This document shows, piece after piece, positions 4,688 to 52,793 of a stretch of DNA of 64,000 nt. Under the pieces are notes generated by a model that searched no databases, had not been told where the DNA came from, and saw nothing but the letters and a program-made list of their open reading frames with translations. Position 1 is the stretch's first letter, and every line of letters begins with the position of its first letter. This stretch comes from Candidatus Omnitrophota bacterium (GTDB lineage Bacteria > Omnitrophota > Gorgyraeia > B26-G9), in the NCBI GenBank assembly GCA_043805415.1, contig JAZDHZ010000027.1, forward strand, positions 71,542-135,541. Reading direction: 5' to 3'. The position numbers were made by a program, and so were the translations under genes.

Positions 4688-6367
4688 TTATCTTACGAAT
4701 TTTATTTTTGTTTCTCCCTCACCAACGCCGCATACTCTTAATCCGCGTAAAGCCTTTCGAATATCTTTATTCAAAACAAATTCTTCTGGTTTAAAACTAT
4801 AAATAAACTCTCCCTTTTCTTTAGATTGTTTCACCCGGTAGATTATTGACTCGTCCAAAAGCATACGCAAACAGATTTTTCCCAGACTATTGCGGTCAAG
4901 TTTTAGCCTAGAACGCAATTGCCTGTCCTTGATCACCTGCCCCTTGGTCTGTTTGCACAGAAATTTTCTCAGATCAGGAATCAGAGCAGAAGCTGTTAGC
5001 TCCTTGATGAAATTAATTATCCTGGCAAAATACACTAAAGAAAAAATCCGATCGCGCGAAATATCCTGGTCAAAACAAGCCGCGCTGCTGCGAAACAAAA
5101 CATAATCATCTTCCGGATTGCAAAACACATCAGCTAATTCTGAAAACAAAGTACTCTCCTTGACTGGATAAAAAATACTCGGCCCAAGCAAAGCCGGCTT
5201 AGCTGCCAGCAAGCGAATATCTCTTAAACCATCTTTAAATCCCTGCCCGGGAAAACCCACAATATAATGAATAGTTGGCACAATATGCTTTTTGGCCATA
5301 AACCTGGACAGGTTAAATACCTTAGCCGTAGGATCATTGCGGTGCAGTTTTTTCCTTAAGCGTTCTTGAGAACTGGCAATTGCCAGATCAATGTGGGTTA
5401 ATCCTGCCTGGATTAGTTTATCCCGCGTAATCCGGTCAATGCCTGAAGCTAATAAACCATTCATAAATGATATTTTTATTGTGCCGCTAAAACGCTGGAT
5501 GATCTTATCCAGCAGCGGCCGGAATTCTGGATTAAGATTTATCGTATCATCTTCAAAATTAAAATGCCGGATCCCTAAGCTAAAAGCATCTTCCATCTCC
5601 AGCATTACATGATCGGCGCTGCGGAAGCGAAACGTCTCGCGGATAGCGCAAAACCGGCAGCCCATACTGCAGCCGCGTGATGCCAGCAGCGATGTACTCA
5701 TACAGCCTTGAAAAACATACTTAGTATAGTCAATCAGCCTGCGGTTTAAAATCGGCAGAGAATTAAGATCTTTTATTATTGCGCTTTGCCTGCTGATCCG
5801 CATCTTACCGTCATCGAGCTTATAACACAGCCCGGGAATATAGCCTAACTTACCTTTTTCATGGGCCTGGCATAATTTTAAAAAACTCTGTTCTGCCTCG
5901 CCTTTGATTACAAAATCTATTTCCGGCCGTCCCAGCACAAACTTCGCGTCCGAGGTCGCCGCTCTTCCGCCAAAAACCACCTGAATTCTGGAATCAATTT
6001 TCTTTACCAGTTTGGCCACAGCAAAAGCATTATCCAGATAAGCAGTGAAATTAGCCGATATCCCGACCATATCCGGCTTTTCTCGGCAAATAGTTTCAGA
6101 GATCTGCCGATCATCCTTGCCAAAGCAATAATAATGGGAAAACAGACAAAAAGCAGAGCGATTAGGCTGATAATAGCGTTTTAGATAAAGCAATTGTTTG
6201 GGAAAAGCCAGAGACTGTTTAGTATAGTCTTCCAGACAATTCAAAACTTTTACGCTGAGGCCGTTATAATCAAGCACAGTTGCCAGAGAAAGCGTTCCCA
6301 AAGGAAATGCCCGCTGCGGGGTAAAAAAGAAATCATTTATTGGGGGATTAATAATCAGAATCTTCAA
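4688..6367 (-). CDS. B12-binding (class B) radical SAM protein
   Basis: 559 aa. N-terminal cobalamin-binding Rossmann-like region (MKILIINPP...VGISANFTA...VVFGGRAATSD). Followed by a radical SAM core with CxxxCxxC (ASRGCSMGCRFCAIRE). Confidence 0.75.
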   Translation of the reverse strand: MKILIINPPINDFFFTPQRAFPLGTLSLATVLDYNGLSVKVLNCLEDYTKQSLAFPKQLLYLKRYYQPNRSAFCLFSHYYCFGKDDRQISETICREKPDMVGISANFTAYLDNAFAVAKLVKKIDSRIQVVFGGRAATSDAKFVLGRPEIDFVIKGEAEQSFLKLCQAHEKGKLGYIPGLCYKLDDGKMRISRQSAIIKDLNSLPILNRRLIDYTKYVFQGCMSTSLLASRGCSMGCRFCAIRETFRFRSADHVMLEMEDAFSLGIRHFNFEDDTINLNPEFRPLLDKIIQRFSGTIKISFMNGLLASGIDRITRDKLIQAGLTHIDLAIASSQERLRKKLHRNDPTAKVFNLSRFMAKKHIVPTIHYIVGFPGQGFKDGLRDIRLLAAKPALLGPSIFYPVKESTLFSELADVFCNPEDDYVLFRSSAACFDQDISRDRIFSLVYFARIINFIKELTASALIPDLRKFLCKQTKGQVIKDRQLRSRLKLDRNSLGKICLRMLLDESIIYRVKQSKEKGEFIYSFKPEEFVLNKDIRKALRGLRVCGVGEGETKIKFVR

Positions 6368-6382
6368 ATATATACTTATTTC

Positions 6383-7633
6383 TCATCTGCCGTTAGAAAT
6401 ATTGAAATAACCCTGGAGCAATTTGGGAAATTCTTTTTTTAATCTCCCCATTATGGTTTTTACCCCTAAAAGTTTTCTTGGCCCGGAACGTTTATGTCCC
6501 AATTCCTGGAAATAGCGCTGCGGATCATAGTTTAAGTTCCGCCACTGGATCATATCTACAGCAGTCTTGCGGATAAATCTCTCTAACTTTTGCCATTCCG
6601 CAACCTCGTCCGTAAACCCTGGCATAGTCAGATAATTTATCGACACAAATTTTCCTTTATTTTTAGCAAGCATAACTGAACGGATAACATCCTCAAATTC
6701 ATATCCGATCGGCCGGTAATATTTATTATAAAATTCTTTTCTTAAGCTGTTAAAACTTACCCGCAGGCTATCCAATCCGCTGTTACAAAGTTTTTCCACA
6801 ACCCTGGGCAGGCTGGCGTTTGTATTCATGTGAATCGTTCCTTTGGCAGTCTTGCTCCTTATTATCCTTATCGCTTTATCAATAACCTCCCCGGCTAAGA
6901 GCGGTTCTCCCTCACATCCCTGGCCGAAACTGACAATTGCTTTACGCGTGTTTTTTATGTGCAGCAGCGCGATCTCGGCAAGCTCCTCCGGAGTCGGCAT
7001 AAAACTTATCCTTTCCTGCGAAGAAACACAAGAACCTTTTTCCTGAAAAGATATACAGCCAAAACACCCCGCGTTACAATGCGGCGATGACGGCAAAGGA
7101 CACTCGTAGCGGCCGAGAAAAAAATTTATCGCGTTAGGGCATTGAGAATTAAGCGCGCAAGTGCGCAGATGCATAATCAAACGATTACTTGTTTTTCTGA
7201 ACTTTTGAATATTCCTGCGTACATCCGCCATATTCACTAAGCTCAAATCATGCACTTTTCTCTGGTCAACGCGTATTGCCGGTACATGAAACCTGCTCTT
7301 ATACCAGACCAGCGGCGCGTAGGAAAACAAAGGCAGAATCTCTGCTCCAGGCTCTTCTTTATACGCGCAGGTAAATAACTGCGTATAACCCGGCGGCACA
7401 AACGCGGCTACTGGAAAATAATCCGCTATTTCCCGAAATATCTTTTGCCGCAGATCAAAACCCAGCGGCCTTCTTTTCGGCAGAAAAAAAATCTTTGTTT
7501 GGCAAGGCATAGGAATAAGATCTTTTTCCTCCAAAGCAAAAATATTCTCGCCAGCCATAGCGCAGGCAGCAAAGCCCTTAACATCGCTTATGTTATTATT
7601 TTTATCCGCAATCAGTAATATTGGTTTTGCCAT
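6383..7633 (-). CDS. Radical SAM protein with an N-terminal domain of unknown function
   Basis: 416 aa. CX3CX2C motif (CNAGCFGC) at about residue 180 followed by a glycine-rich SAM-binding segment. The N-terminal ~170 aa is unassigned. Separated from the B12-rSAM gene by 15 bp. Confidence 0.65.
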   Translation of the reverse strand: MAKPILLIADKNNNISDVKGFAACAMAGENIFALEEKDLIPMPCQTKIFFLPKRRPLGFDLRQKIFREIADYFPVAAFVPPGYTQLFTCAYKEEPGAEILPLFSYAPLVWYKSRFHVPAIRVDQRKVHDLSLVNMADVRRNIQKFRKTSNRLIMHLRTCALNSQCPNAINFFLGRYECPLPSSPHCNAGCFGCISFQEKGSCVSSQERISFMPTPEELAEIALLHIKNTRKAIVSFGQGCEGEPLLAGEVIDKAIRIIRSKTAKGTIHMNTNASLPRVVEKLCNSGLDSLRVSFNSLRKEFYNKYYRPIGYEFEDVIRSVMLAKNKGKFVSINYLTMPGFTDEVAEWQKLERFIRKTAVDMIQWRNLNYDPQRYFQELGHKRSGPRKLLGVKTIMGRLKKEFPKLLQGYFNISNGR

Positions 7634-7694: not shown

Positions 7695-9080
7695 TTATTT
7701 GCTTATTTCATCAACTTTTTTCACGCTAATAGCAATAAGATACCCCAAAACAATAACCATGCTCACTAATGCGAAAATAAGCAGTTTTTTAGGTGATATT
7801 ATCGGCTTATGTTTAATATCCGCATTCGCATTAACTTTTTCTTCTCCGATTTTCCAGCGTTCACCGTTAACCAATGGTATTTCCGATAATACTGATGAAA
7901 CATCATAATGAGGCGCTTTAGCTTCCGGCCCTCCATAATAAGCTTTTAAATTTTTCGCGTTATTGGGAAAAAATATCACTTCATGAACAGAGCCTTCGGC
8001 CTGAACCGAGTTGACTTCAATCGGAGCATTATCATAATTAAATATCCGGACGCGGTATTTTTTATACCTATTTTCTTTATCAGGTAAATCAATCCTGAGA
8101 TTTTCCTTATGAAAATCTCCAGCGTTTATATTGAATAATTCACCCGCAACAAGTCTGATCCAGTTTGCCTCAGGATTTAAAGGATTATCCGCCTCCACAA
8201 AAACTTTACGTTTAAAGTTTCTGTCTGTGATGCTAAATAATATCCGGGTTAAAGGCTCTCTTTGCGAATTCAAATAGATATCGCTGGTTTTATCTTTTTC
8301 ATTAATTGTCACTTTTGCTATATCCAGGGGATAAGGAACCGTCTTAATTTCCCCATAAACCATCTTTTCTTCCCGGCTAATAAAATCAAGCTTGTCGATA
8401 TGCAGCACACCCTCATAACGCATAAAAGCAGCATACTCTTCTTTAACTTTTCCTTTTGCGTATTTAGTAAATATTTGCGAAAATGAGGAAACAAGCGCTT
8501 GCGCCACATTATCAATGACAATCTTATAATATTTAAACGGTTTTTTCTCAAAAGATACGCTGGTATTGCTAAGATCGATAAATCGCGAATAATCAAAAAT
8601 CGGCTGATTCTCACAAAGAATCTGCCATTGCGTTTTATCGTCACTGCCAAACACTGACACTGTTTTTTCAAAATTACTATTTGAAGTTTTAATGATTACA
8701 TCTGAAGGAATAATCAATTCTTTTTGCTTTTGTTTTTCATCATCTATTTCCAAGACAATACTCAGTCTATTGTTCGCAAGCTCTTCAAGGCTTAAGATTT
8801 TCATAGCAACCGGAGATTCGGTTAGAATCTTTTCCTGTCCTCTTAATTTCCGGACCAGATAAGGCACTTCCTTATCTTTCGCGTCATAAATCCTCAAATT
8901 GGCAAAATCATTATCAGTATTAAGATATAGCTGACTATCAAAAGTCGCTGCGCCCACTTCCTGTTCCATATTTTCAGGCGCTGTTAATTCCTTGTAGAAT
9001 AAGAATTCATTTGCCGATACTGGTGCTGCTAAACAAACTGCCAGAACTAAAATACTGAATATCCTAATCGAGTTTTTCAT
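7695..9080 (-). CDS. Secreted/anchored DUF3999-like protein (signal peptide, C-terminal TM helix)
   Basis: 461 aa. N-terminal signal peptide (MKNSIRIFSILVLAVCLAAPVSA) and C-terminal hydrophobic helix (LLIFALVSMVIVLGYLIAISV). Overlaps by 4 nt the downstream end of a large polytopic membrane protein gene. DUF2339/DUF3999 pairs are commonly arranged this way. Confidence 0.35.
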   Translation of the reverse strand: MKNSIRIFSILVLAVCLAAPVSANEFLFYKELTAPENMEQEVGAATFDSQLYLNTDNDFANLRIYDAKDKEVPYLVRKLRGQEKILTESPVAMKILSLEELANNRLSIVLEIDDEKQKQKELIIPSDVIIKTSNSNFEKTVSVFGSDDKTQWQILCENQPIFDYSRFIDLSNTSVSFEKKPFKYYKIVIDNVAQALVSSFSQIFTKYAKGKVKEEYAAFMRYEGVLHIDKLDFISREEKMVYGEIKTVPYPLDIAKVTINEKDKTSDIYLNSQREPLTRILFSITDRNFKRKVFVEADNPLNPEANWIRLVAGELFNINAGDFHKENLRIDLPDKENRYKKYRVRIFNYDNAPIEVNSVQAEGSVHEVIFFPNNAKNLKAYYGGPEAKAPHYDVSSVLSEIPLVNGERWKIGEEKVNANADIKHKPIISPKKLLIFALVSMVIVLGYLIAISVKKVDEISK

Positions 9081-11500
9081 TTTTCCTCCTCAATAGCGAA
9101 TTTCTTGTTCGCGTAAATATAGGCAAAAGATCCTCCGATTAATATTATTCCTAAGAGCATAAACGCGATTACTCTATAAAAAACTTCCATCTCAGCAAGA
9201 TCAAATAAAAATACTTTACCCATAACAACAATAAACAATCCTAGTCCGCTATATCGCCAATTCTTGCTTGACTTGACTATCCCGATTATAAGGTAGGAAA
9301 CTGCGAATAAAGCCCATACTACTGATATCGCGCCCTCTTGGAAAGATTTCACATACCAATAGAAAAAGGTATTAACTTCCAGAGAAGAATAGATAAACAG
9401 CAAGCCGGTACTTATGACTATAAACGCCTTACGGTAATCTACTAAATCCTGTTTCCTAGAAACTAGCTGCGTAATTCCAATTAGATAAAGAAAAATTACG
9501 CCGTAATCAAAAACCCGGATTAATATCGGTACTGAACCTTTCTCGTAAATATACCCATTAATATTGCTCACCCATCCGGAATAATCATAGAAAAATAATT
9601 TCCCGATAATAAACGCGATTAATATTATTGCTGCTGATAAAAAAACCCGCTTATTAGTAGAAAAATAATTATATAAAATATATCCCCCTAAGATACAGGA
9701 TAATAGCGTGAGCACTGGCATTTGTAATGGCAAACAATAGGAAACCATCTGAAAAAACTCTAAATAAAGGATAAAGAACACAAATGCCACTCCCCCCCAA
9801 AACATTACTTCACGCGAAACCGCGGATGATACTAACAATCTGCTATTAATCTTCTCCTCCACTTTAAAATCTTCAATCTGCTTAATTTTACGTTTATGCA
9901 AAAAGAAGCCACTGAAAAAAGAAGCGATAACCACACCAAAAGTCCAGATTCGATCAAAAAATATTGCCCAATACTCACTTAACGGCAGCGTTGCCGCAAA
10001 GCGGCCTAAGAATTTACTCGGCATATCAATAAGTAATAGTCTGCTCACAACCATTAAGTATAAAATATGAGCAAGGTTTATCAGCAGGTTGCTATTTAAT
10101 TTCAAACCTATCCAAAGGAAGAAAAATGCCTGCAATGCCCAGCAGATAGTCAGTGTTTCTTTTTGGGTAATCAACGGTACTGCCCAGACCGTAAAGAAGC
10201 CAGCAACCCCTATCAAACAAACTAACAAATTACGGTCAACATTGCGGTTTTTAAGAAAAACGTAAATATGCGTTATGTAAAAAACAGCTACCCCGATTGC
10301 CATAACTGCTGGCCAAGGACGGCCATAAGCTTCTAAAATTAAAGCGTATGCTGTTAAGGAATAGAAAAAAGAGTTAAAAAGCATATGAATTATTTCTAAG
10401 TTTGAGGATTGTTTACGTTTAACCAGGTTATAATAAAATATGATCATCCCATGCAAAATAAACAATAAACTAAGCAGCGTTATTGTTCCAGGAAAGTCTC
10501 TTTTTACCTGATAGCCGGAAAAACTCGCGAATACTAAAGCCCAGGTGAATATAAACCCTAGGTAATTTAATAAACGCCAATTGCGCACATGGGCTATAAT
10601 TAAAATACCGATACTAAGTATCAGCATATAAGCATATAGACCTACTGGGCTTGCTTCAGGAGTGCTTAATATTATCGGAGTACAGAAGCCGCCAATAATT
10701 CCAAAAATAGCTACTAGTTGCGAATTAAACTTATATGCCATTACTCCCGCGACAATAGTAATTAAAACCATAAAAGCAAATGTACCGGACAAGGGAATCT
10801 TGGCATATAATGGACCAGCGGCGTACATGCTAAAATAAAGAGCCGCCAAACCACCGCCTAAAAAGCCTTGCCCAAGAATATCATATTTTTTATTAAGATT
10901 CTTAACCCCTACCCCTAACATAGAAAGTCCAGCCATTATCGATAAGGCTATGCGCCCGGTATTACCTAAAATTCCTCGATCCATTGACCATTTTAGAAAA
11001 TAGCCAATACAAATAACTATGGCAATAACTCCCAGTCTCATCAGCCAAGTACTGGCAATCGCGTATTCGATTGATACGTTTTTCTGGCGGCGTTCTTCCC
11101 CAACCAGTATCCAATTCCAGATCTTTTTTAAAATATCATTAACGCCCTCTTCAAGCTTTGATTTTTGACGATCAACTTTAACTGTCGGCTTTATATTTAC
11201 AGCAGCAGGTTTTAAAATCGCTGGCTGTTTTTTGGATACTTGCGAAACCTCGCTGACTTTTTTCAAATCCATAACCGGCTCTTTTGGCACCTCTTCAAGG
11301 TTTTTAGCTTCAGCTGGCTTAGGAATATCCTTATCCGACTCTGGCTCAATATGCTTAATCAGCTCTTCCAGCTTTTGGCGTAGCGGCACAAGAGAAAGAT
11401 AAATATCTCTTTGCAAATCAAGTCTTGTCTCTTTTAATAATTTTTCTATGATCTTTAAAAAAATGGAACCAAAAACAATAAGGGCTATAATATAAAACAT
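9077..11500 (-). CDS. Large polytopic membrane protein, DUF2339-like
   Basis: 807 aa. N-terminal ~150 aa are soluble and charged, followed by more than 20 predicted TM helices. The size and architecture match the DUF2339 family. Confidence 0.45.
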   Translation of the reverse strand: MFYIIALIVFGSIFLKIIEKLLKETRLDLQRDIYLSLVPLRQKLEELIKHIEPESDKDIPKPAEAKNLEEVPKEPVMDLKKVSEVSQVSKKQPAILKPAAVNIKPTVKVDRQKSKLEEGVNDILKKIWNWILVGEERRQKNVSIEYAIASTWLMRLGVIAIVICIGYFLKWSMDRGILGNTGRIALSIMAGLSMLGVGVKNLNKKYDILGQGFLGGGLAALYFSMYAAGPLYAKIPLSGTFAFMVLITIVAGVMAYKFNSQLVAIFGIIGGFCTPIILSTPEASPVGLYAYMLILSIGILIIAHVRNWRLLNYLGFIFTWALVFASFSGYQVKRDFPGTITLLSLLFILHGMIIFYYNLVKRKQSSNLEIIHMLFNSFFYSLTAYALILEAYGRPWPAVMAIGVAVFYITHIYVFLKNRNVDRNLLVCLIGVAGFFTVWAVPLITQKETLTICWALQAFFFLWIGLKLNSNLLINLAHILYLMVVSRLLLIDMPSKFLGRFAATLPLSEYWAIFFDRIWTFGVVIASFFSGFFLHKRKIKQIEDFKVEEKINSRLLVSSAVSREVMFWGGVAFVFFILYLEFFQMVSYCLPLQMPVLTLLSCILGGYILYNYFSTNKRVFLSAAIILIAFIIGKLFFYDYSGWVSNINGYIYEKGSVPILIRVFDYGVIFLYLIGITQLVSRKQDLVDYRKAFIVISTGLLFIYSSLEVNTFFYWYVKSFQEGAISVVWALFAVSYLIIGIVKSSKNWRYSGLGLFIVVMGKVFLFDLAEMEVFYRVIAFMLLGIILIGGSFAYIYANKKFAIEEEK

Positions 11501-12323: not shown

Positions 12324-12574
12324 TTTACACCCAACTTTGTTTATAACTATACTGTTAATCTATAAACAGTATATCACAAAACAATATTCCTGTCAATGCC
12401 TCAGCTAATTCGCAAGTATTATTATTGGAATCACCGGCAGTAAATATACGTCATAAACCTTTAATCTGTTTACATATAAAAAAAGCCTGATAAGTGATGA
12501 GCTAAATGGCCCGGAGTAAACAGCTTGGTTCTTTAATATTGCTGGTTAAAGTTATCTTTGCTATAATGTTTTTC

Positions 12575-14236
12575 ATGATATCACAACTCACCATACAAAA
12601 TATTGGACTGATAGATAAACTCACTATCGATTTTCGCCGGCACTTAAATATTCTGACCGGCGAAACTGGGGCGGGAAAATCGATTTTAATTGATGCTCTT
12701 CGCTTTGTTTTAGGAGAACGGGTAAATACCTCTTTGGTGCGCAATCCGGAACTGTCTTGCACTGTAGAGGCTATTTTTGAGATACAAAAAAAATCTCTGA
12801 GTGAATATGATGCTTTTTTAGAATTTTTTAACCAAGAAAATCAGCTGATCATAAACCGCTCTTATCTTCCGGACGGCAGAAGCAAAATTAAAATAAATGG
12901 GTTTACCGTCACTTTAACCCAGCTAAAAAACCTGGGTGATAGTCTGGTGGATTTTCACGGCCCGCATGACCATCAGCTGCTTTTTTCCGTACAATCGCAT
13001 ATAAAAATGCTGGACCGTTTAAGCAACATCGATGCCTTGAAACAATCTTATCTGGAAAACTATCATAAATACAGCGAACTCCTAAAAAAACAAAGCGAAT
13101 TAAAAGAAATGGCAGTTTCGCGGGAAAAGGAGCTCGACACCCTTAAATATCAAATAAATGAGCTGAGTAGTGTTCCTCTTGATCAAGTAAAATATGAAGA
13201 ACTTTTAACCGAACAAAAAAAACTTAATAATCGCGAAAGAATATCTGAAAACTTAAATACTGTTATAGCCATGCTGGAAAATGACGAGACTGGTGTCAAT
13301 GAAACCATCCGCAAAGCATTTGGAGCGATGAAGAATCTCAATAACATTGATGAAAGTACCAAAAATTTTATGGAACAATTAAACACCCTGCAGGAAACCG
13401 GTGATGAGCTTTTAAACAATCTAATTGCTTACCGCGACAGCCTTTGTTTTGATACTGAAACCACTCAGAACATTAATTCCCGCTGCGATATTTATTACTC
13501 CATAAAACGCAAATACGGGCCGACTTTAGAATCTGCCCTCAAATTCTTCGAAGAGGCAAAAGAAAAATACGAACTTATATCGAATTTAGAACACAACACA
13601 GCGAGCCTGAACAAAGAAATCACTTCTCTCCAGGAAGAACTTGAAAAAGCCGCAGATAAAATATCTAAACAGCGTAAAAAAACAGCTTCTGCTCTTCAAA
13701 AAACCATAGAAAAAGAACTCAAAGACCTTGGTATAAAACAAGTAGAATTCGAATGCCGCGTTAAAAAAACTGCTTTAAACCAGGATGGCTGCGATTCTGT
13801 GGAATTTTATATAAGCCCCAATGCCGGCGAAAGCCTTAAACCTCTGGCTGAGATAGTTTCTTCCGGAGAAGCCGCGCGGGTAATGCTGGCGCTAAAAAAA
13901 GCCCTGATCGAAGTTGACCTTATACCCGTACTTATATTCGATGAAATCGACGCCCAAATCGGCGGCCGGCTCGGCACCATAACCGGGCGTAAATTAAAAG
14001 AACTTTCTTGCGGCCGACAGGTTATCCTAATCACCCATTTGCCGCAAATCGCCAGTTTCGCCGACGCTCACTATAAAGTAGTAAAAACGGTTAAAGCCAA
14101 CCGCACTTTTACAACCATAGAGTATCTGGAAAATGAAACACGGGTCAAAGAACTTGCCGCAATGATGAGCGACGAAAAACAAAGCCCCATCGCCATAAAC
14201 CACGCCAGAGAAATGCTTGCTAAGGCAGGCGAATAA
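12575..14236 (+). CDS. recN: DNA repair protein RecN
   Basis: N-terminus MISQLTIQNIGLIDKLTIDF...LTGETGAGKSILIDAL (Walker A), long coiled-coil middle, C-terminal signature and Walker B (LIFDEIDAQIGG). Start chosen at the ATG 12575 that aligns with RecN N-termini. The tool ORF from 12506 adds an unlikely 23-aa hydrophobic extension. A TATAAT sits at 12562-12567. Confidence 0.85.
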   Translation: MISQLTIQNIGLIDKLTIDFRRHLNILTGETGAGKSILIDALRFVLGERVNTSLVRNPELSCTVEAIFEIQKKSLSEYDAFLEFFNQENQLIINRSYLPDGRSKIKINGFTVTLTQLKNLGDSLVDFHGPHDHQLLFSVQSHIKMLDRLSNIDALKQSYLENYHKYSELLKKQSELKEMAVSREKELDTLKYQINELSSVPLDQVKYEELLTEQKKLNNRERISENLNTVIAMLENDETGVNETIRKAFGAMKNLNNIDESTKNFMEQLNTLQETGDELLNNLIAYRDSLCFDTETTQNINSRCDIYYSIKRKYGPTLESALKFFEEAKEKYELISNLEHNTASLNKEITSLQEELEKAADKISKQRKKTASALQKTIEKELKDLGIKQVEFECRVKKTALNQDGCDSVEFYISPNAGESLKPLAEIVSSGEAARVMLALKKALIEVDLIPVLIFDEIDAQIGGRLGTITGRKLKELSCGRQVILITHLPQIASFADAHYKVVKTVKANRTFTTIEYLENETRVKELAAMMSDEKQSPIAINHAREMLAKAGE

Positions 14237-14570
14237 GGTTAAGAAATAACTTAATAAATGACTCTGCCCCCGGGCGCAGGCTACTTTCCCAGAGCTTGAT
14301 TTTCTGTTTGGCATGATAAATACAGGTTGATGCAAAAATTGCCTGCCCAGATAAAAACAGATCATTTGAATGGAACTCAGCAAATATGCGTCCTAACTCT
14401 TTGCTGTGTTTGCAGATACAAAAACCGCTTACGCTCATTATTAGGCCTCCCCTGCCTATGCAGAGAAATTCATCTCCCCATGCGCCAATATACCCACTTA
14501 GGAATATTGGCATTAAATTATAATTTATGATACAATTTATGACTTTAATGTATTATAAGAAAGCCACGCA

Positions 14571-17231
14571 ATGTTAAAAATACTTAAAAAATCCTTAGTT
14601 ATAATAAGATTGCTTGTATTTTTTTTACTAACAAGCATTACTTACTTACATGCTGATAGTAGCGTATCGCAGCACAGTACGACAACTATGAGTTTTTTAA
14701 TTACTGAACAGGCCATGCTTGCGCCTCGCATCACCAGCAATAGTCTTAAAATTTCTGATTATATTCAAGCCTTTACTATTTGCAGAACCATTGAGGGACG
14801 ATCTCCTCATAAGCTTTCCCTTAACGAAATAATGTCCTCATTGGACACAACCGATCCTTTATTTAAGGAGTGCCGGTTTGAAACCAAGTTAAAAGAACTG
14901 TACATTTATCTTCCTAACAGCGCTCTTTGCATTCGCTACTTTAACCCGTATCCAGAAATAATGCGCGATTTACCTGATAATGGGATTATGCTTAATGCTC
15001 AATTGTACCGCCAAATCAGTGTGCTTACAAAAAAGTTATACCCTGACGTCCAACAAATAAACCCGGCAATTCACCCCAGCGTCAAAGCTGTTGTATTTGA
15101 TTTTGACGGCACCATCGCCGACACCATTCCGCATATTCTTCGAGCCTTTGGAAAAATTATTTACGCCATTACACAAGCAACTTCCGATATTCCTCCTGAA
15201 GATTATTCGCCATTAGCTGCTAAGTTTTTAGATGAGCGCCAATGGCAACCAGTAACCACACATATCAACAATCTGATACAAGAAGCAATCCAAGGAGGCG
15301 TTTCCCAGCATCAGCTTACTGAAATCATGACTCAATTGGCACATAAGTATAATATTATCGGCCTGCGTCAAGAAGCGATGGACATGGGATTCGCTCAGAT
15401 ATATGAAGCTGCTTTGCTGAATGAAATCAAAACCAATCCGCCCCAACCGTTTCCCGGCGCCAGGCAATTTCTCTATTCTTTATACCAGTCCGGTATACGC
15501 ATGTACATTGCAACAGGAACCACCCAAACCGTTGTTGAATATCTTACCCAACAATGGGGCATTGACAGCGGATTTGATGTTATTTACGGCGTGCCTACGG
15601 ACAGACCGTATGGATTTAGCCGGAACAAAACCGATATTCTCGAAGAAGTTAAAAATAATTTAGGACTGTCTGCCGGTGAAATCGCAATTGTCGGTGATTC
15701 TCGGGATGATATGCGTGCCGCAAAGAATCCTTCCCTGCCGGCAAATGAGCGTTTTGTCGCAATTGGTATTTCCAATGAGCAATCCGGACGTGATTTATTA
15801 GCAAACAACGGTGCAGATTTCCTCATCCCGGGGTTATCTGCCTGGCAATCACTTTGGAATACTCTTAGCATCTCTCTACCGACGCTAACGCTGGCAATGC
15901 CGAAAAATAGAGCAGATGGCCTACCCTTTCAATTTGCTATCGGTCATGCGGTTAAGGGAGGCACAAATTTAAAACAGCTTAAAAGTACCGCGCAGGAATT
16001 TGCCACATTTAAGAGCAGTATCATTGAACAAGTACAGGCTCTCCCTGATTCACCATCAGCTTTAGACCTCAATGCTGTTGATTTCAATCAGCCTTTTTTA
16101 AAACTATTTCCCATCATTCGATACGCCCTTGAAACAGATAGTCATTCAGATTTTATGCGCATTATAAACAGTATTATTGAATCACAAACGCTTTCCCCTG
16201 AACAGAAAAAAGAATCGTTTCTTACAATAATGGCCTGGAGTAAACATTTTCCCGCTTCAATAAAACGTGAAAATTATTGCGCTTACTCCTTTGAAATGTT
16301 TGCGCAGGCAGTACAAGAATATCAACAACAGCATCCGCAACAGCTTATTAATGTTGGCGAGCTGGGAAGCGGAGACGGACTGGCTATCTTTCAGTATAAA
16401 AATCTCTTGCGCATGCAGGGAATTAAAGCTGATTACACCCAATTTGAAATTGACCAAGCAAGTATTGATAAATCCCGGCTGTTCAATCAAAAAGACACCT
16501 TTGTGGCCGGGGATCTGGCAAATCTGCCCGAATCAGAAAAGGCAAAATATCGCGCTAAATTTGATGTGATCATGCTTAATAATGTAATGCATGAACTCTT
16601 TGCTGTTTATGGCGAACAAGGGATTAAAACTATTTTAAGCTCTGCTGCTGAATTATTAAAACCCGGCGGAGTTCTGGTTTTCCGAGATGGTATTTATCCG
16701 CAAAACGGAGGCCGCTATACTCGAATAGCAATCTCGCCCCAATACGAAGAAGCCTTTCTTTTCTTTCAGACACATTATAAATTTCGAACAGCGTTATTCC
16801 CCGGGATTTATGACAATGAAGTAGTTCTTCCCCTCGGAGATTTAGCGAAATTCTTAACAAAGATAAAATTCATAGAAGCCAATAAATTATGGGAGGACCG
16901 CTACGGAATAGAAGGCGAAATGCATCAAGTATACTGCTTTGCGAATATAGACGACTATAATCATTTCCTTACAGACGCAGGTTTTCATATTTCAGAAGTC
17001 ACCTTGGGTAATGAGCAGGAATCTTTGGCTTTATGGAAAAAAGCTGTTCCATTTAGCCAACCATTTTTTATGGAGCAAAGAGATGAAGGTGGTCCACATT
17101 CACCAATCAGTGAACAACGCCGCGCAGACGAAGACTCGCTCGCGCGTTTTTCCCTTAGTGATGTATTACAGCATGGTAAAAAGGAACCTGAGGAAAACTC
17201 TGCCACAACCTTGATCCAACAATCAATTTAA
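14571..17231 (+). CDS. Secreted multidomain protein: signal peptide + N-terminal domain + HAD-superfamily hydrolase domain + class I SAM-dependent methyltransferase domain
   Basis: 886 aa. Signal-peptide-like N-terminus (MLKILKKSLVIIRLLVFFLLTSITYLHA). HAD motif I VVFDFDGTIADT and motif III/IV IAIVGDSRDDMRAAKN. Methyltransferase motif I (INVGELGSGDGLAI), an acidic post-I residue, and motif III (LLKPGGVLVF). Q/E-rich C-terminal tail. A 335-bp upstream intergenic region. Confidence 0.6.
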   Translation: MLKILKKSLVIIRLLVFFLLTSITYLHADSSVSQHSTTTMSFLITEQAMLAPRITSNSLKISDYIQAFTICRTIEGRSPHKLSLNEIMSSLDTTDPLFKECRFETKLKELYIYLPNSALCIRYFNPYPEIMRDLPDNGIMLNAQLYRQISVLTKKLYPDVQQINPAIHPSVKAVVFDFDGTIADTIPHILRAFGKIIYAITQATSDIPPEDYSPLAAKFLDERQWQPVTTHINNLIQEAIQGGVSQHQLTEIMTQLAHKYNIIGLRQEAMDMGFAQIYEAALLNEIKTNPPQPFPGARQFLYSLYQSGIRMYIATGTTQTVVEYLTQQWGIDSGFDVIYGVPTDRPYGFSRNKTDILEEVKNNLGLSAGEIAIVGDSRDDMRAAKNPSLPANERFVAIGISNEQSGRDLLANNGADFLIPGLSAWQSLWNTLSISLPTLTLAMPKNRADGLPFQFAIGHAVKGGTNLKQLKSTAQEFATFKSSIIEQVQALPDSPSALDLNAVDFNQPFLKLFPIIRYALETDSHSDFMRIINSIIESQTLSPEQKKESFLTIMAWSKHFPASIKRENYCAYSFEMFAQAVQEYQQQHPQQLINVGELGSGDGLAIFQYKNLLRMQGIKADYTQFEIDQASIDKSRLFNQKDTFVAGDLANLPESEKAKYRAKFDVIMLNNVMHELFAVYGEQGIKTILSSAAELLKPGGVLVFRDGIYPQNGGRYTRIAISPQYEEAFLFFQTHYKFRTALFPGIYDNEVVLPLGDLAKFLTKIKFIEANKLWEDRYGIEGEMHQVYCFANIDDYNHFLTDAGFHISEVTLGNEQESLALWKKAVPFSQPFFMEQRDEGGPHSPISEQRRADEDSLARFSLSDVLQHGKKEPEENSATTLIQQSI

Positions 17232-17737
17232 GGTAAAAACACTCGCTTATATAAACAAGCTATTAAAGACAATAACTGTTCTACTGACAACAAGGTATAG
17301 ATAAAAATAGACTCTTCTAGTTTCTCCTTTCCCAGATAAAAGCAGATTATAAGGAACTCAATTAGTTTCTAGGGCAGACCCCCAATTTCTCCTCTCAGCA
17401 ATCAGCTGTCAACAGTCAGATCGGGGATTAGGATTCTGCTGTTTTGCGCGTTACAATCAAAAATTCGGCAATTCCTTGCATTTTTTATTCGCAACATATT
17501 TATTAATAATGCATTACAAAGAGTGTCCCTGTTTCTTATTAACAACATACTGAGGATATGGTCCTTATAAATTCCGCAGGACTTGAAATTATTGCTTTTT
17601 TAATGTATACTTTTTTAACTTTGATGGTCGCCGGTACTAAGGCAAAACAACCTCGATATCCGTATGGTTCGTTCTCGTGGTTGGTTGCATGCCGCCCATT
17701 GCGGAAATAAACTATAATAAATATTCGAGATGCTCAC

Positions 17738-18877
17738 ATGAAACGAATCACCAGATATATTTTCCGGTTTTTATTAACAATCCTCTGCATTCTAATTCAA
17801 ACCTGCTGGGCTGAAGCAACAAACGATAGAGCTAACGTTGGCGGAATCTTTGATCACAGTGCATTAAGCCCCCAAATAATGCTTAATCGCGCAGCATTAG
17901 AAGAATATTTTAATTCTGAAACAGAGGAAATAATTTTTGGCGAAGCGCATCGTCGGACTAGAAGTATTATCGACAGCGTGTTAAAACACGGGATTAATTC
18001 GGCAAGTAAATTAGAGGACAACGGAATTACCGTTCATGCTTCTGTCGACAGGTACGATGGCAGTGATGGTTCCGCAAGCATTTCGGCAAATTTATTACAG
18101 ATTGACAGCCGGGTTACTGTTAATCAATTGGTAACCGATGCCCTGTATCATCAGGCCAAAGGCATCGTCCAGGTGATTCTCGAGCGCTCGAGTGACACTG
18201 CGCTTAATATCGTGAACAGCAAAAGAATCTCCGATTTTTATTTGCAATTATTGCTGGAAGAACGCGCGGAACATAGTATCATTGCTCTCATTGATGTTGC
18301 CAAATTAAGCCCTGAAGACACGCAACATATTAAAGAAAATCCATTCCTCGAAACTTCCGGCATGGCACTTGAGATAATGCTCAAGCATACTGTATCAAAA
18401 GACGCTATCTGCGGTTTTCTAGTCCCTGAAGCAATGTTGGAAATTATCAGTGACTTATTACCGTCTGATAAAGACATCATTATCATCCCCGGAAAAAAAC
18501 AAAAAAATTTATCAATTGCCCGTCCCGCCTTAATTCATCACAGATTTAGCATAAATCTCAAACGTAATGTTACTATTCGTGTCCCGGATTATGAAGAAGC
18601 ATTAGAGCGTTTTTTTTCAAAGAACCCGAAAAAATATTGGTTGCTCCACGGGATACGCCTTATTACGCCTTCGGATATTATCGCGGAGTCTCAGCCGGCC
18701 GCCCCTTTATTCTATCCGGGATTCACGCTGCAAGAACAGTTCCCCTCGGCTATCGAAGAAATAGGATTGCTGCAGACGTTCATTCCCAAAACAAAACCTG
18801 AATTGCCGGAACAACCTCACTCGCTGGATCATCTCCTGAGATATTTATTGCGTCCATTACTGGAACAGTCTATTTAA
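17738..18877 (+). CDS. Secreted hypothetical protein (signal peptide, no recognisable domain)
   Basis: 379 aa. N-terminal signal peptide MKRITRYIFRFLLTILCILIQTCWA. A 506-bp upstream intergenic region. No motif I can assign. Confidence 0.5.
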   Translation: MKRITRYIFRFLLTILCILIQTCWAEATNDRANVGGIFDHSALSPQIMLNRAALEEYFNSETEEIIFGEAHRRTRSIIDSVLKHGINSASKLEDNGITVHASVDRYDGSDGSASISANLLQIDSRVTVNQLVTDALYHQAKGIVQVILERSSDTALNIVNSKRISDFYLQLLLEERAEHSIIALIDVAKLSPEDTQHIKENPFLETSGMALEIMLKHTVSKDAICGFLVPEAMLEIISDLLPSDKDIIIIPGKKQKNLSIARPALIHHRFSINLKRNVTIRVPDYEEALERFFSKNPKKYWLLHGIRLITPSDIIAESQPAAPLFYPGFTLQEQFPSAIEEIGLLQTFIPKTKPELPEQPHSLDHLLRYLLRPLLEQSI

Positions 18878-19051: not shown

Positions 19052-19203
19052 AAACAGCTCGGTTCTTTAATATTGCCCGTTAAAGTTATCTTTGTTATAA
19101 TGAATCACGAATTAAAGAACTTGCCGAAATGATGGGCGATGAAAAACAAAGCACTATCGCCATAAACCACGCCAGAGAAATGCTCGCTAAAGCCAGCGAA
19201 TAA
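19052..19203 (+). pseudogene. Degenerate recN remnant: recN promoter/start fused directly to the last ~30 codons of recN
   Basis: 19052-19102 matches 12518-12568 (recN -10 region and ATG context) with 4 mismatches in about 51 bp. 19113-19203 matches the recN 3' end 14147-14236 with 8 mismatches in about 90 bp, including the TAA. The ATG is out of frame with the 3' segment. Confidence 0.6.
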
Positions 19204-19233: not shown

Positions 19234-20022
19234 TTATTTAAGGATTCTTTTGCGCATCATAGCCATGCTGAAAAAAATACAGCCGATAGTCATAGCGGCA
19301 AGATAAAGCAAGTTAAAATAGTCAAGGCTGCAGGTATCACATAATGCCAGAGTGCGCAGTGACGAGACCAGACAGGTTAACGGCATGACTGCCGCCGTTT
19401 TCTGCGCCCATAACGGCAGCGAAGATATCGGGAAAAATACTCCGCCAAAAAGAAACATCGGAGTAACAAACAAAAATACCGGAAAATTAAACATTTCGAT
19501 ATTTTTCACTAAAGAGGTAAAACACATGCCTAAAGCGGAAAAGGCCATGCCCGCCAGAAAGGTGACTGGTACGCACACAATAGCCGCGCGCCAGGGGATC
19601 AAGCCCCAGATTACCACGATAACCAGCATTATCCCCGCGGCCATCACTGACTTTGTCGCTCCCCAAACTATCTCCCCAAGGATAACGTCCTCAAGCATCA
19701 AAGGCGTAGACAAGATTGCGTCATATGTCTTCTAAAAATACATTCTCACAAAAGAAGCGTATGTCGTCTCAAAAAATCCGTGATTCATGACCGCGGCAGC
19801 CACCAGCCCCGGTGCGATAAACTGCAGATAGGAAACCGCCCCAGCGCGGTAAGTAACTTCCGGGACCAGATTCCCCAGTCCCACCCCAAAAGCCAGCAGA
19901 TAAAGCAGCGGTTCTAAAAGCGGCGGGATAAAATTTACTTTCCAGGTCGCTTTATATACGTCAAAATTCCTCTGCCATATCCTTATCGCCCGCCAGCTTA
20001 TATTATGTAATATTGCCCTCAT
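19234..20022 (-). pseudogene. ABC-2 family transporter permease interrupted by an in-frame TAG
   Basis: Two tool ORFs (19732..20022 and 19234..19713) are in the same frame and are separated only by a TAG (plus strand cta at 19732-19734). The read-through translation ...FVRMYF*KTYDAILSTPLMLEDV... gives a single ~262-aa polytopic ABC-2 permease. Confidence 0.6.
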
Positions 20023-20070
20023 CAGGTCATTCCCTCAGTCCCCGGCCGGTAAGTTTCAAAAAAACATCTT

Positions 20071-20965
20071 CTAAGTTTGCCATGCGCAGCGCGCAGGAAC
20101 TTTCACCGAATTTTTTCGATATTTCAGGCCATAACAAATTTGTTTTATGCCCGTAAATAAAAAAATGGGTAAGGTTTTTTTCGTAATCCAGCCCCTTAGC
20201 CTTTCAATATTATTATCCACAGAACCTATTTCTATCACCAAAGAACCCATATATTTTTCAATTAACGCTTTGGGAGAGCCGCGGTCTATTATCTTCCCCT
20301 GATCCATAATAACCAGCCTGTCACAAAGATGCGATGCTTCATCCATATTGTGAGTAGTTATTAAGATAGTCGTCCCTTCTTTTTTTAATTCGTGAAGCCT
20401 TTCCCATATCTGATGCCTTGACTGCGGATCAAGCCCGGTTGTCGGCTCATCAAGAATAAGCAGCCGCGGCCTATTCACCAAAGAGCGCGCGATCATCAGG
20501 CGGCGTTTCATCCCGCCGGATAGTTCATCAATCCGCGCGTCTTTTTTTATGTAAAAGGCCCATAAACTCAAGCAGCTCCACATTGCGCAGATTAGCCGAT
20601 TCTCCGATTATATCAAAATACCGCGCAAAAAACCGCAGATTATCCAGCACTTTCAAGTCCGGGTCAAGATTATCTTCCTGCGGACAAACCCCAATATTCG
20701 TCTTAATAAAACGAGCAAACCGGTCCGTTCTCTTCCCAAACACTTCCAGCGTTCCGCCGCTGGGCTCAAGAAAACAGGAGATCATTCGTATTAAAGTCGT
20801 CTTCCCCGCTCCGTTAGGGCCTAAAAATCCCAAACATTCCTGAGAATTAACGGAAAAATCTATGCCGTTTACCGCTTTAAAGCCGCTGAAGGCTTTGCTT
20901 AGATCTTGAGCATTAACGATACTATTTTTTTGGGAATTCTCATCAGCCATCATTTTATCATCCAA
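20071..20965 (-). pseudogene. ABC transporter ATP-binding protein disrupted by a frameshift at an A7 homopolymer
   Basis: The N-terminal ORF (20528..20965) has Walker A GPNGAGKTT and a Q-loop. The C-terminal ORF (20071..20583, different frame) has the ABC signature LSGGMKRR, Walker [13 protein letters not shown] and the H-loop TTHNMDEA. The frames switch at the run aaaaaaa near 20546-20552. The C-terminal ~40 aa read as nonsense next to further A7/T7 runs. Confidence 0.6.
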
Positions 20966-21000
20966 AAAAAGGTTTACACCTATTTATCTTGGTTTTTAAT

Positions 21001-21440
21001 TTATTTTATTAACATATTCATTATTATTTGAATATTTGTTTCATCCGCGATATTTTTAACTGAAATAAGATTGCTTAAAAGACTAATTGTTTTTTGCAAT
21101 TCCAGGTATTTATAATCTGATGCCTTTAAGCGCTTTTCATTAATCGTATACCCATCAACTAAGTGCTTTTTTAATACATTGGTCGCCCAGATACAAAATT
21201 GAGTAGCCTGTGTGGAATTCACACGGTAACCAACAGAAATAATAGCATCCAAATTGTAAAATTTAGTCTTATAAATTTTGCCATCACCGGCAGTATGTTC
21301 CAAACAATTTTGCAATATGAGCCTGCGTCAGCCAAACTGTCTCTTTCTCCAGCCGGACTTCGACTTTATTTTTATAAACCACAACCTGCCCTTTAGATAT
21401 TTCTTGTGATTTCACAACTTAAACTCCTTAGATAAAATTA
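21001..21440 (-). pseudogene. Truncated and frameshifted RhuM-family protein gene
   Basis: ORF 21001..21315 carries the RhuM core (YNLDAIISVGYRVNSTQATQFCIWATNVLKKHLVDGYTINEKRL). The RhuM N-terminus (VVYKNKVEVRLEKETVWLTQAHIAKLF) is encoded in another frame at about 21330-21440. The C-terminal half of the family is missing. Confidence 0.5.
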
Positions 21441-21503
21441 TATCTATTTTAAACAGTGTTTCGGCCGCATTATTCCTCCTTTGTTTTTCTTCTCTCCGCA
21501 TAA

Positions 21504-21791
21504 TCAGCATACAGTATATGTATGTAATTTAAGAGCCGCTGCTGCTTCATCAACAGTAGCGTAGTAATTTTTGCGGCTTTCACAATGCTGCGGTTTAATA
21601 TGATTCTTTCCGGTATTAACATTCATTTGAGCAGGTGGTTCAATCCGAATATCCATATCTTCAGAAAAACGATGAATTATTCCATACCCTTTAGAAAGCG
21701 ATGTGCCGCCTTTTAACTCAAATTGAAATTCATTTTGCTGCAACCCATATAATACACGCATTATCCAATAATCCTTTTCCACTTCTTCCAC
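21504..21791 (-). pseudogene. N-terminal fragment of an AbiEii/DUF1814-type nucleotidyltransferase (abortive-infection toxin family)
   Basis: 95 aa. Segment ELKGGTSLSKGYGIIHRFSEDMDIRIEP matches the nucleotidyltransferase motif (hGGTAL...RhSEDlDh) of AbiEii-family proteins, which are usually ~300 aa. It abuts katG and has no AbiEi partner. Confidence 0.45.
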
Positions 21792-38707: not shown

Positions 38708-38725
38708 TTCTATATTTTAGGACTC

Positions 38726-41716: not shown

Positions 41717-41738
41717 TATTTATTCCCCCGACAAAAAC

Positions 41739-43418: not shown

Positions 43419-43428
43419 TAGGATTCTC

Positions 43429-44580: not shown

Positions 44581-44629
44581 TTTTGTTTTTTAATATGTCT
44601 CAATTTTTAGTCAGGAATTTTCCTCTCGA

Positions 44630-45259
44630 CTATTGTACTGGTGATTTTTCTTTGCTGATAAATGTAAAATCCTCTGATTCACTGGGAGCTTTTTGTTGAC
44701 TTAAAACACCGCGCATTTCGGTCATATTCTCGTCAATTTCTCCGCGCCAGAAAACAATCTGTCCATTTTCTGAGCTTTGCATAGTTTCCCAAATCGTCAT
44801 TCCATTCTCTTTTATGGTTAAAGTATAATTTGTCGCTGTAAAACCTTTATCACTAAACTGCTGCGAGTAAAATTTATTGTCCTTAAAAATCAGATCATCT
44901 TTTCTGATTTTTCCGCCTCCAGCTATAGGAAAAATCTCGGTATTCCAGCTGGTATTATTAAGATTTTTTCTTACTTTTTCACTCAATGCTTTTGCTTCAA
45001 TTTGTGAAAGATTTGCTTTCTCCTGTGAAGCAACGGGTTTTACTGATTTTTCTTGGGTTACTGGTTTTACTGGTTTTTCCTGGATTACTGGTTTTTCTTG
45101 GATTACTGGATTAGCTTGTTTTTTAGACTCCACCTGAATTTCTTCTGTTTTTTCCTCAGGAGTATCAGATTTTTTCTTACCCCACAAGGCATGTCCGTTT
45201 TGCGCTGTGCTGATTACAAATACTGCGATTAAAACCATACAAAACACTGCTTTTTTCAT
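44630..45259 (-). CDS. Secreted protein with PVIQEK/PVKPVTQEK tandem repeats
   Basis: 209 aa. Signal peptide (MKKAVFCMVLIAVFVISTAQNGHA). A hexapeptide tandem repeat region, then a C-terminal globular part. Confidence 0.4.
   Translation of the reverse strand: MKKAVFCMVLIAVFVISTAQNGHALWGKKKSDTPEEKTEEIQVESKKQANPVIQEKPVIQEKPVKPVTQEKSVKPVASQEKANLSQIEAKALSEKVRKNLNNTSWNTEIFPIAGGGKIRKDDLIFKDNKFYSQQFSDKGFTATNYTLTIKENGMTIWETMQSSENGQIVFWRGEIDENMTEMRGVLSQQKAPSESEDFTFISKEKSPVQ
45040..45125. repeat. Short tandem repeat, period about 18 bp (coding; PVIQEK units)
   Basis: The 18-bp unit ggattactggtttttc(c/t)t recurs consecutively on the plus strand inside gene 44630-45259. Confidence 0.5.
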
Positions 45260-45286
45260 ACCGCCCCCTTTTGTTTATAATAAACT

Positions 45287-48071: not shown

Positions 48072-48082
48072 GGGTATAAAAA

Positions 48083-52775: not shown

Positions 52776-52793
52776 ATTTATTAATCCGCTACT

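Follow-up and report, generated by a model that had tools for sequence, protein, structure and literature searches.

Does a bacterium export an enzyme that removes a phosphate group and adds a methyl group within one polypeptide chain? The question is raised by a gene at positions 14571-17231 (forward strand) of a 64,000-nucleotide stretch of DNA, called the window here, on contig JAZDHZ010000027.1 of a Candidatus Omnitrophota metagenome-assembled genome (MAG; assembly GCA_043805415.1). The gene encodes a protein of 886 amino acids with a signal-peptide-like N-terminus, an N-terminal module (N-module) specific to the lineage, a HAD phosphatase domain, a connector and a class I S-adenosylmethionine (SAM) methyltransferase domain. 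The answer that we favour, with a probability of about 55%, is that the product is an exported two-step tailoring enzyme for phosphate removal and methyl addition.

The open reading frame is intact exactly as described in the initial annotation. Its product is identical to MFH1062294.1, titled 'MAG: HAD family hydrolase [Candidatus Omnitrophota bacterium]' at NCBI, which lies on a contig of 137,655 bp with RecN (MFH1062293.1) and a hypothetical protein (MFH1062295.1) as neighbours. The HAD and methyltransferase folds had been read from the motifs DFDGT (amino acids 177-181), GDSRDD (375-380), VGELGSGDG (595-603) and LKPGGVLVF (696-704). All four motifs are found at these places and both folds are backed by Pfam matches above the curated cut-offs.

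The phosphatase domain (amino acids 166-430, positions 15066-15860, forward strand) belongs to the HAD-IA type of COG0546, which resembles phosphoglycolate phosphatase (PGP), as judged from Pfam, a subfamily profile and the motifs. The Pfam matches are to PF00702 (E=3.9e-21) and HAD_2 (E=5.5e-19) over amino acids 171-386. Motif I, DFDGT, is intact with D177 as the nucleophile, D179 as the Asp+2 general acid/base and T181, and motif II (T315 in IATGT), motif III (K353) and motif IV (G375-D376-x3-D380) are all present. Residues K353, D376, D380 and G180/T181 are invariant in an alignment of 16 sequences from the HAD subfamily. Motif I is degenerate in some relatives, with DFVGT in a protein termed P0003 and FGLNGT and FDFHGT in giant proteins, whereas the 886-amino acid protein keeps the catalytic residues.

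About 105 amino acids separate motif I from a conserved PG loop, a gap that is spanned by the Pfam HAD_2 and Hydrolase alignments. Helices in this part are seen only in a low-confidence AlphaFold2 (AF2) model of the full protein from its single sequence, which had a predicted local distance difference test (pLDDT) score of 35.5 and was not usable. A long, helical cap insert is predicted between motifs I and II. Large caps in this position go with small-molecule substrates. The best PDB matches to the HAD subfamily profile are HAD-IA proteins of the COG0546/PGP-like kind (3mc1, 2ah5, AlnB and TM_1254). Naming the domain a phosphoglycolate phosphatase was rejected because every HAD score among the NCBIfam equivalogs is far under its cut-off, including those of PRK13222 (44.1 bits, cut-off 225) and TIGR01449 (33.7 bits, cut-off 180).

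The class I SAM methyltransferase domain (amino acids 586-871, positions 16326-17183, forward strand) is supported by Pfam, AF2 and Foldseek. Pfam gives Methyltransf_12 (E=1.4e-8) as well as Methyltransf_31 and Methyltransf_11 above their cut-offs, over amino acids 594-706. Motif I reads E597-L-G-S-G-D-G603 and strand 2 has the acidic end FEID (625-628), followed by NNVMHE (670-675) and RDG (705-707); the family has two invariant pairs of its own, HE behind strand 4 and DG behind strand 5. The alignment-based AF2 model, made for amino acids 431-886 from 26 sequences, has a mean pLDDT of 80.6 and a predicted template modelling score of 0.81 and shows a seven-stranded Rossmann-like arrangement. 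With this model, Foldseek found 677 PDB chains at E<=0.001, and the top 50 are all methyltransferases. The nearest structures, at 12-14% identity, are AtmM/RebM, MitM, TleD, the C-methyltransferase of CurJ, Rv2258c and BioC, and the sequence profile also matches plantazolicin and phosphoethanolamine N-methyltransferases. The domain is predicted to be a methyltransferase of the small-molecule type, able to bind SAM and transfer a methyl group. The tail described as Q/E-rich consists largely of a low-confidence loop (837-858) inside this fold, which continues to a last strand at about 862-871. Only about 15 residues follow, a C-terminal tail (positions 17184-17231, forward strand, by sequence and AF2) ending in LIQQSI and the stop codon. 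An analogy with RNA-end healing, where a HAD 3'-phosphatase works with a Hen1-type methyltransferase, was set aside in view of the HAD domain, predicted to be of the capped small-molecule type, and the small-molecule-like methyltransferase.

The two enzymes are not joined by a blank linker. About 155 amino acids between them (431-585, positions 15861-16325, forward strand) form a conserved helical connector according to alignment and AF2, disordered to about residue 466 and then folded as a confident helical domain with pLDDT >90 from about residue 480. The connector motifs, RYALETD (517-523) and one of PYSFE type, are kept in the relative P0002 (E=8.6e-21) and, weakly, in P0003.

To find relatives, 1.84 billion cluster representatives were scanned exhaustively with HMMER, which gave 279 matches at E<=1e-3. 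The whole HAD-connector-methyltransferase block is present in only two of these, P0002 and P0003, and the fusion is rare. P0002 is a protein of 665 amino acids from an Omnitrophota MAG, 39% identical over amino acids 156-763 and with its own signal peptide, and a gene for a NAD-dependent sugar epimerase/dehydratase lies downstream of it. P0003 (1368 amino acids), from an unclassified bacterial MAG, has a radical-SAM domain ahead of the block and is without a signal peptide. The block is so far restricted to Omnitrophota and unclassified MAGs. The 886-amino acid protein itself is a singleton in clusters at 90% identity, and a word-indexed protein search returned it as its own sole match.

The separate domains occur in other combinations. 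The HAD subtype is found with a B12-radical SAM domain behind a signal peptide and N-module (P0005), joined to a carbamoyltransferase (P0006), with HEAT repeats, a methyltransferase, a protein kinase and an HD domain in 4367 amino acids (P0011), with a PEP-utilising domain (P0014) and close to the C-terminus of a 2730-amino acid protein (L007). Proteins of 2,700-6,400 amino acids that contain it are P0004, P0008, P0009, P0011-P0014 and L007. The last of these was the one informative locus in a metagenome scan keyed on HAD motif-I patterns, which returned mostly generic HADs. The methyltransferase subtype is fused to radical-SAM enzymes in P0038 and P0156.

The statement that exported HAD-methyltransferase fusions are not a standard bacterial family is correct for bacteria generally, but not for Omnitrophota, where such a protein is to be expected because two preprints describe the theme. 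West-Roberts et al. reported that methyltransferases, HAD_2, radical SAM, NUDIX and HEAT are among the domains that recur in giant Omnitrophota proteins ('Archaeovorins'), and that many of these proteins are encoded near type II secretion genes (10.1101/2023.11.21.568195). In a set of 916 long Omnitrophota proteins, a Pfam co-occurrence 'Module 1' consists of methyltransferase, HATPase, GNAT, HAD and HD domains, radical-SAM Pfams are also combined, and 94% of the proteins have a signal peptide or transmembrane helices (10.64898/2026.06.07.730766). The readings left open there are an extracellular effector, a secreted carbohydrate-active enzyme, a membrane-anchored cytoplasmic enzyme and a passenger of a mobile element (10.64898/2026.06.07.730766). 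As far as can be told, the compact two-enzyme form, the HAD-connector-methyltransferase block and the N-module as a unit are new relative to both preprints. A single literature search on HAD-methyltransferase fusions turned up only other HAD fusions (MtlD, drimenol synthase and soluble epoxide hydrolase).

Whether the protein leaves the cytoplasm depends on its N-terminus. Hydrophobicity rules and the alignment of homologues predict a Sec-type signal peptide in amino acids 1-28 (positions 14571-14654, forward strand), with cleavage between LHA and DSS. The sequence is MLKILKKSLVIIR-LLVFFLLTSITYL-HA↓DSS (the arrow marks the predicted cleavage site), in which the positively charged K3, K6, K7 and R13 precede a hydrophobic core of 13 residues (LLVFFLLTSITYL), with L at -3, A at -1 and the acidic D29 after the core. 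This is the sole hydrophobic segment of the protein, and by the rules applied it has the features of a Sec (signal peptidase I) signal peptide. The predicted cleavage site shares alignment columns with the SWA↓K and GWA↓K sites of P0116 and P0005, and signal-peptide-like N-termini are also present in P0002, P0004, P0006, P0009, P0012, P0013, P0015, P0018, P0027 and P0030. The signal peptide proposed in the initial annotation is thus upheld by rules and by homologues that keep the cleavage position, and we infer that the protein is exported and cleaved after A28.

The following part belongs to what had been called about 150 amino acids of unassigned sequence. These ~130 amino acids are in fact a module common to other Omnitrophota proteins, located by profile match and alignments to amino acids ~40-165 (positions 14688-15065, forward strand). 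Its motifs are LAP (50-52), ICRTIE (70-75), CRFE (101-104), RYFNP (122-126) and LxRQI, and the pattern conserved among homologues is LAP, IC.TIE, CRFE, E.xI..P, (A/C)(V/I)RYF(D/N)P and L.RQI. The N-module matches the N-terminus of P0116, a 1268-amino acid protein without a Pfam domain, at E=6.8e-5 against the full 1.84-billion-protein library. Alignments link it to P0005/P0151, P0030 and the fragments P0157/P0158 as well; neither Pfam nor the PDB contains a relative. A word-indexed search with the N-terminal 170 amino acids gave no match, and the N-module profile found two short fragments only in that kind of search.

A signal peptide ending in xWA, often followed by LAP, is seen in P0004, P0005, P0012-P0015, P0027, P0030 and P0116 (1,268-6,402 amino acids). 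Many of these large Omnitrophota proteins also have a common C-terminal domain with -AA as the last residues (for example ...IYEHVKEVIAAA and ...KVVITAA), and neither their shared N-terminal nor their shared C-terminal parts are covered by Pfam. The 886-amino acid protein is without the -AA domain.

The mechanism that we propose can be outlined as follows. The signal peptide would take the chain over the inner membrane and be cut off after LHA, leaving a mature protein with the N-module, a catalytically complete capped HAD-IA phosphatase and a small-molecule class I methyltransferase. The helical connector would keep the two enzymes together, and the block of HAD, connector and methyltransferase is inherited as a unit. 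By analogy with other HAD fusion enzymes, the two active sites probably act sequentially on one small phosphorylated substrate. Their site of action would be the periplasm, the cell surface or material derived from a host or prey. A sugar-type or head-group-type metabolite seems the most plausible substrate; the carbamoyltransferase, the B12-radical SAM and the sugar-nucleotide epimerase in or near relatives, together with the structural matches to RebM/AtmM, hint weakly in that direction. The gene and its secreted-looking orphan neighbour lie in a strain-specific islet of ~4.9 kb at the 3' end of recN.

Several points weigh against this proposal. To our knowledge SAM is not available outside the cytoplasm, so an exported SAM-dependent enzyme needs a cofactor source that is unexplained. 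P0003 and P0007 are without a signal peptide, and the signal peptide of P0005 precedes radical-SAM/B12 domains that need cytoplasmic cofactors, two observations that make simple Sec export questionable for the family. No conserved operon partner was found in the examined loci of relatives, which lie alone among housekeeping genes. No substrate can be named from the NCBIfam equivalogs, whose scores are all far below cut-off. The N-module is possibly used in docking or sorting, which is a guess because only about five homologues are known. The cofactor difficulty implies either that the enzyme works amid the contents of a host or prey, or that the N-terminus anchors a cytoplasmic enzyme.

An anchored enzyme is the strongest alternative, credible enough to be kept in mind yet doubtful. 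It would be a cytoplasmic tailoring enzyme, tethered to the inner membrane by an uncleaved N-terminus, that modifies a precursor of an envelope glycan or lipid head group before export. SAM is present on the cytoplasmic face, P0003 and P0007 have no signal sequence, and the company that the relatives keep (radical-SAM/B12 and carbamoyltransferase fusions, the epimerase/dehydratase beside P0002) is typical of cytoplasmic tailoring enzymes. Nearly half of the long Omnitrophota proteins have also been read as membrane-anchored with cytoplasmic domains (10.64898/2026.06.07.730766). The details of the N-terminus speak for export instead. With K3, K6, K7 and R13 before the core and D29 after it, an N-in/C-out orientation is predicted. 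Arg13 breaks the would-be membrane helix and leaves a core of 13 residues, which is typical of signal peptides, and the -3/-1 motif is kept at the aligned position in homologues (SWA↓, GWA↓). Charge distribution, interrupting arginine and conserved cleavage motif together favour an exported enzyme over an anchored one.

A broader idea, which we consider unlikely, is that the xWA/xHA signal peptide and the 'LAP' N-module, together with the -AA C-terminal domain in larger relatives, mark an undescribed export or sorting route specific to Omnitrophota. Such a route would carry cofactor-dependent enzymes of cytoplasmic type (SAM methyltransferases, radical-SAM/B12 enzymes, HADs and kinases) for use on or in a host or prey. 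If so, the 886-amino acid protein would be the smallest cargo for testing it.

That the protein is a secreted effector acting on host or prey proteins or nucleic acids, delivered across the outer membrane, for example by a secretin, and supplied with SAM by the target cell, is quite improbable. A signal peptide is predicted, the gene lies in a strain-specific islet and two secretin genes are found 29-35 kb away in the window. Omnitrophota are reported to be host-dependent or predatory and their secreted giants have been read as effectors (10.1101/2023.11.21.568195; 10.64898/2026.06.07.730766). HAD-fold enzymes that act on proteins exist, and one of them, PtkA, ranks high among the PDB sequence matches (6f2x). 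However, the effector function suggested in the initial annotation is at odds with both domains: the large predicted helical cap between motifs I and II is of the kind linked with small-molecule rather than macromolecular substrates, and small-molecule enzymes are also the closest structural matches of the methyltransferase. No injection machinery or chaperone is adjacent. Furthermore, we know of no route by which a Sec-exported protein in Omnitrophota could enter the cytoplasm of another cell.

The location of the gene raises the question of how it arrived there. In the window, the forward strand carries only recN, the 886-amino acid gene and a gene for a 379-amino acid protein; nearly all else is on the reverse strand. 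The initial annotation described an insert flanked by recN, and this insert is real. The last 107 nucleotides of the intact recN gene (12506-14236, forward strand, 576 amino acids) comprise its last 35 codons and stop codon (14130-14236, forward strand), and they are repeated as an orphan recN tail at 19097-19203 (forward strand; NESRIKELAEMMGDEKQSTIAINHAREMLAKASE followed by a stop). The two copies are 87% identical (93/107), have sharp edges, and the right copy still reads as a RecN tail. Of the ~4.9-kb islet between them, which contains two genes, ~1.1 kb is non-coding. The 886-amino acid gene is preceded by 334 nucleotides of intergenic DNA, in agreement with the long upstream region described for it. 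This includes a promoter-like site at 14507-14536 (forward strand; TTGGCA, an 18-nucleotide spacer and a TG-extended TACAAT, 10/12 matches in a consensus scan) ending 35 nucleotides before the start codon; the scan gave 19 sites compared with 13.8 +/- 3.1 in shuffled sequences, and the site is a consensus match only.

Among the RecN sequences found, the nearest (85-93% identical) come from the Omnitrophota MAGs MM_PC_MetaG.mb.2 and mb.228; no orthologue of the 886-amino acid gene was found in MAGs with RecN of this identity. At locus L005 (RecN 86% identical) the insert is absent; downstream of its complete recN lie unrelated genes and, after them, a RhuM-family gene. Since L005 carries other genes 3' of recN, a clean empty site is not among the loci compared. 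Three contigs from mb.2/mb.228 (L003, L004 and L006) start or stop within recN, at residues ~379-417. On L006, the 3' part of recN is followed by an rsmH-like gene and then by the DUF3999 and DUF2339 genes, which are upstream of recN in the window. The broken contigs and the gene order on L006 indicate that the neighbourhood of recN is either rearranged between strains or prone to break assemblies, and the contig ends fit a boundary that varies in the population. The region 3' of recN thus differs between strains.

The insert had been read as horizontally acquired, which the data do not bear out for acquisition from a foreign source. In GC content (0.41-0.42) and in codon usage, neither insert gene departs from the range seen among the window genes. 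No recombinase, integrase or transposase was found in the insert, where only two open reading frames of at least 150 amino acids exist, neither of them a recombinase. A profile of the two domains gave no match in viral contigs. Searches with PADLOC and PHROGs gave only generic HAD and methyltransferase matches, because of which an origin from a defence system or phage was rejected. The native composition, the lack of an integrase or transposase and the lack of phage or defence relatives point to exchange within the lineage or to a hypervariable locus; Omnitrophota have a median of seven hypervariable loci per chromosome (10.64898/2026.06.07.730766). That the gene is a decaying, non-functional passenger of a degraded variable region, open by chance, would fit the frameshifted ABC-2 permease and ATPase genes and the RhuM and AbiEii fragments in the adjacent 19.2-21.8 kb, its singleton status and its absence from the MAGs with similar RecN, but is very improbable given 886 open codons in DNA of 38-41% GC, four HAD motifs and SAM motifs kept unlike in some relatives, native codon usage and the promoter-like site.

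The second gene of the islet (17738-18877, forward strand, MFH1062295.1) encodes an orphan protein of 379 amino acids with a signal-peptide-like N-terminus (TCWA↓EATND) and the end LLEQSI. It was noted from the start as having no detectable domain, and no match was found in Pfam, NCBIfam, PHROGs, PADLOC, PDB or viral contigs. Homology between the two insert proteins was rejected because the BLASTP comparison was not significant. Their C-termini share the pattern L[I/L][Q/E]QSI-COOH, written in different codons (17214-17228 and 18860-18874), and QSI ends no other open reading frame of at least 150 amino acids in the window. The shared end may be a C-terminal signal or a chance likeness.

A motif of ~30 nucleotides, CCCAGATAAAA[A/G]CAGAT[C/T]AT..GGAACTCA, occurs in exactly two copies in the window. 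Copy 1 (CCCAGATAAAAACAGATCAT..GGAACTCA) is at 14346-14379 (forward strand), 110 nucleotides past the recN stop codon, and copy 2 at 17331-17360 (forward strand), 100 nucleotides past the stop codon of the 886-amino acid gene. Their alignment score is 36 compared with 20.4 +/- 2.4 in shuffled sequences, and the motif is absent from 73 fetched loci. A structured RNA was rejected at z-scores of about +1. The motif may be a relic of a cassette boundary.

Other features of the window concern the surroundings of the islet. As called, also by NCBI, recN has 23 extra hydrophobic residues at the N-terminus (12506-12574) that are largely absent in the L005 homologue. The conserved RecN start is MISQLTIQNIGLIDKL, which suggests a true start near 12575. 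On the reverse strand beyond the right repeat there are a broken ABC-2 permease (19732-20022 and 19234-19713), a broken ABC ATPase in overlapping pieces (20528-20965 and 20071-20583), a RhuM-family fragment (21001-21315) and an AbiEii toxin fragment (21504-21791). These broken genes, at 19234-21791, are either real pseudogenes or frameshift errors in the MAG. RhuM-family genes recur at 13231-14208 of L001 (RhuM-Fic, a few kb from P0002), at 15755-16324 of L005 and in the window fragment.

Upstream at a distance of 7-10 kb, two radical-SAM genes, one of them of the B12-binding kind (4688-7633, reverse strand), lie beside a DUF3999/DUF2339 pair of membrane-protein genes (7695-11500, reverse strand). 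A special tie to the B12-radical-SAM gene (4688-6367) was rejected since its similarity to the radical-SAM part of P0005 is a generic 27%. The secretins belong to a cluster at 37616-53654 (reverse strand) and are two paralogues of 605 amino acids each (46254-48071 and 50290-52107). The cluster also contains several TPR proteins, a Wza-like polysaccharide-export protein (37616-38707), an HD-domain protein, an ExeA-like AAA ATPase (52794-53654) and proteins of 996 and 559 amino acids without meaningful Pfam matches. This cluster of secretin, TPR and ExeA-like genes (37.6-53.7 kb) is 20-35 kb from the 886-amino acid gene, on the opposite strand and not adjacent.

According to prediction, the methyltransferase, HAD, radical-SAM and kinase domains of the giant Omnitrophota proteins lie outside the cytoplasm; with tens of thousands of residues, these proteins are too long to be expressed for a test. 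The 886-amino acid protein shares their HAD subtype and kind of N-terminus, carries a methyltransferase related to theirs, and is small enough to be cloned, localised and assayed. With its size and its homologous modules it could show whether such enzymes are exported, where their SAM comes from and what they act on. If it turns out to be an ordinary cytoplasmic enzyme tethered to the membrane, that would warn against taking the giant proteins to be extracellular. The islet at recN is also a concrete case of a small variable site at a housekeeping gene, and Omnitrophota are reported to have many hypervariable loci. The main value of the protein is not as a new kind of system but as a possibly tractable test case for whether such cofactor-dependent enzymes work outside the cell.

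Compared with known systems, the phosphatase domain shares the four motifs and, by prediction, the helical cap after motif I with COG0546/PGP-like HAD-IA enzymes (3mc1, 2ah5, 2hi0 and TM_1254, 3kbb). It differs in the longer predicted cap (~105 amino acids), the fusion, the signal peptide in front and signatures of its own (NP..P before motif I, AFGK.YHWI and GADFLIP..W). The methyltransferase has the Rossmann-type SAM fold and substrate lid of small-molecule and natural-product methyltransferases, such as the sugar O-methyltransferases RebM/AtmM, MitM, TleD, the CurJ C-methyltransferase, BamL/BpumL and phosphoethanolamine N-methyltransferases. Here, however, identity is 12-14%, the HE and DG residues are its own, a helical connector is placed N-terminally and a loop of 22 residues precedes the last strand.

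Phosphatase and second enzyme are combined in one chain also in the bifunctional HAD fusions MtlD (PDB 7oct, which is also among the HAD profile matches), drimenol synthase (HAD and terpene cyclase) and soluble epoxide hydrolase. In those fusions the phosphatase strips phosphate from the substrate or product of its partner. They are cytoplasmic. The partner here is a methyltransferase, and channeling would be by analogy only. The islet, in turn, resembles integrative genomic islands in its direct repeats from the 3' end of the target gene, but it has no integrase or recombinase and its composition is native.

With the giant proteins of Omnitrophota, the 886-amino acid protein has in common the phylum, the vocabulary of HAD_2 and class I methyltransferase domains and the N-terminal signal peptide or transmembrane segment, and its relatives share the radical-SAM, HEAT, kinase and HD domains of the giants. 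Those proteins have ~10,000 to above 30,000 amino acids in the cited studies and many transmembrane regions, whereas the protein described here has 886 amino acids and two enzymes and is without SecA-like (SecA DEAD-like), C39 peptidase and dockerin domains, repeat scaffolds and internal transmembrane helices. It is not a giant protein. Its HAD domain and N-module are homologous to those of large proteins and, judged from its sequence, it is a compact form related to the large and giant multi-enzyme proteins of Omnitrophota.

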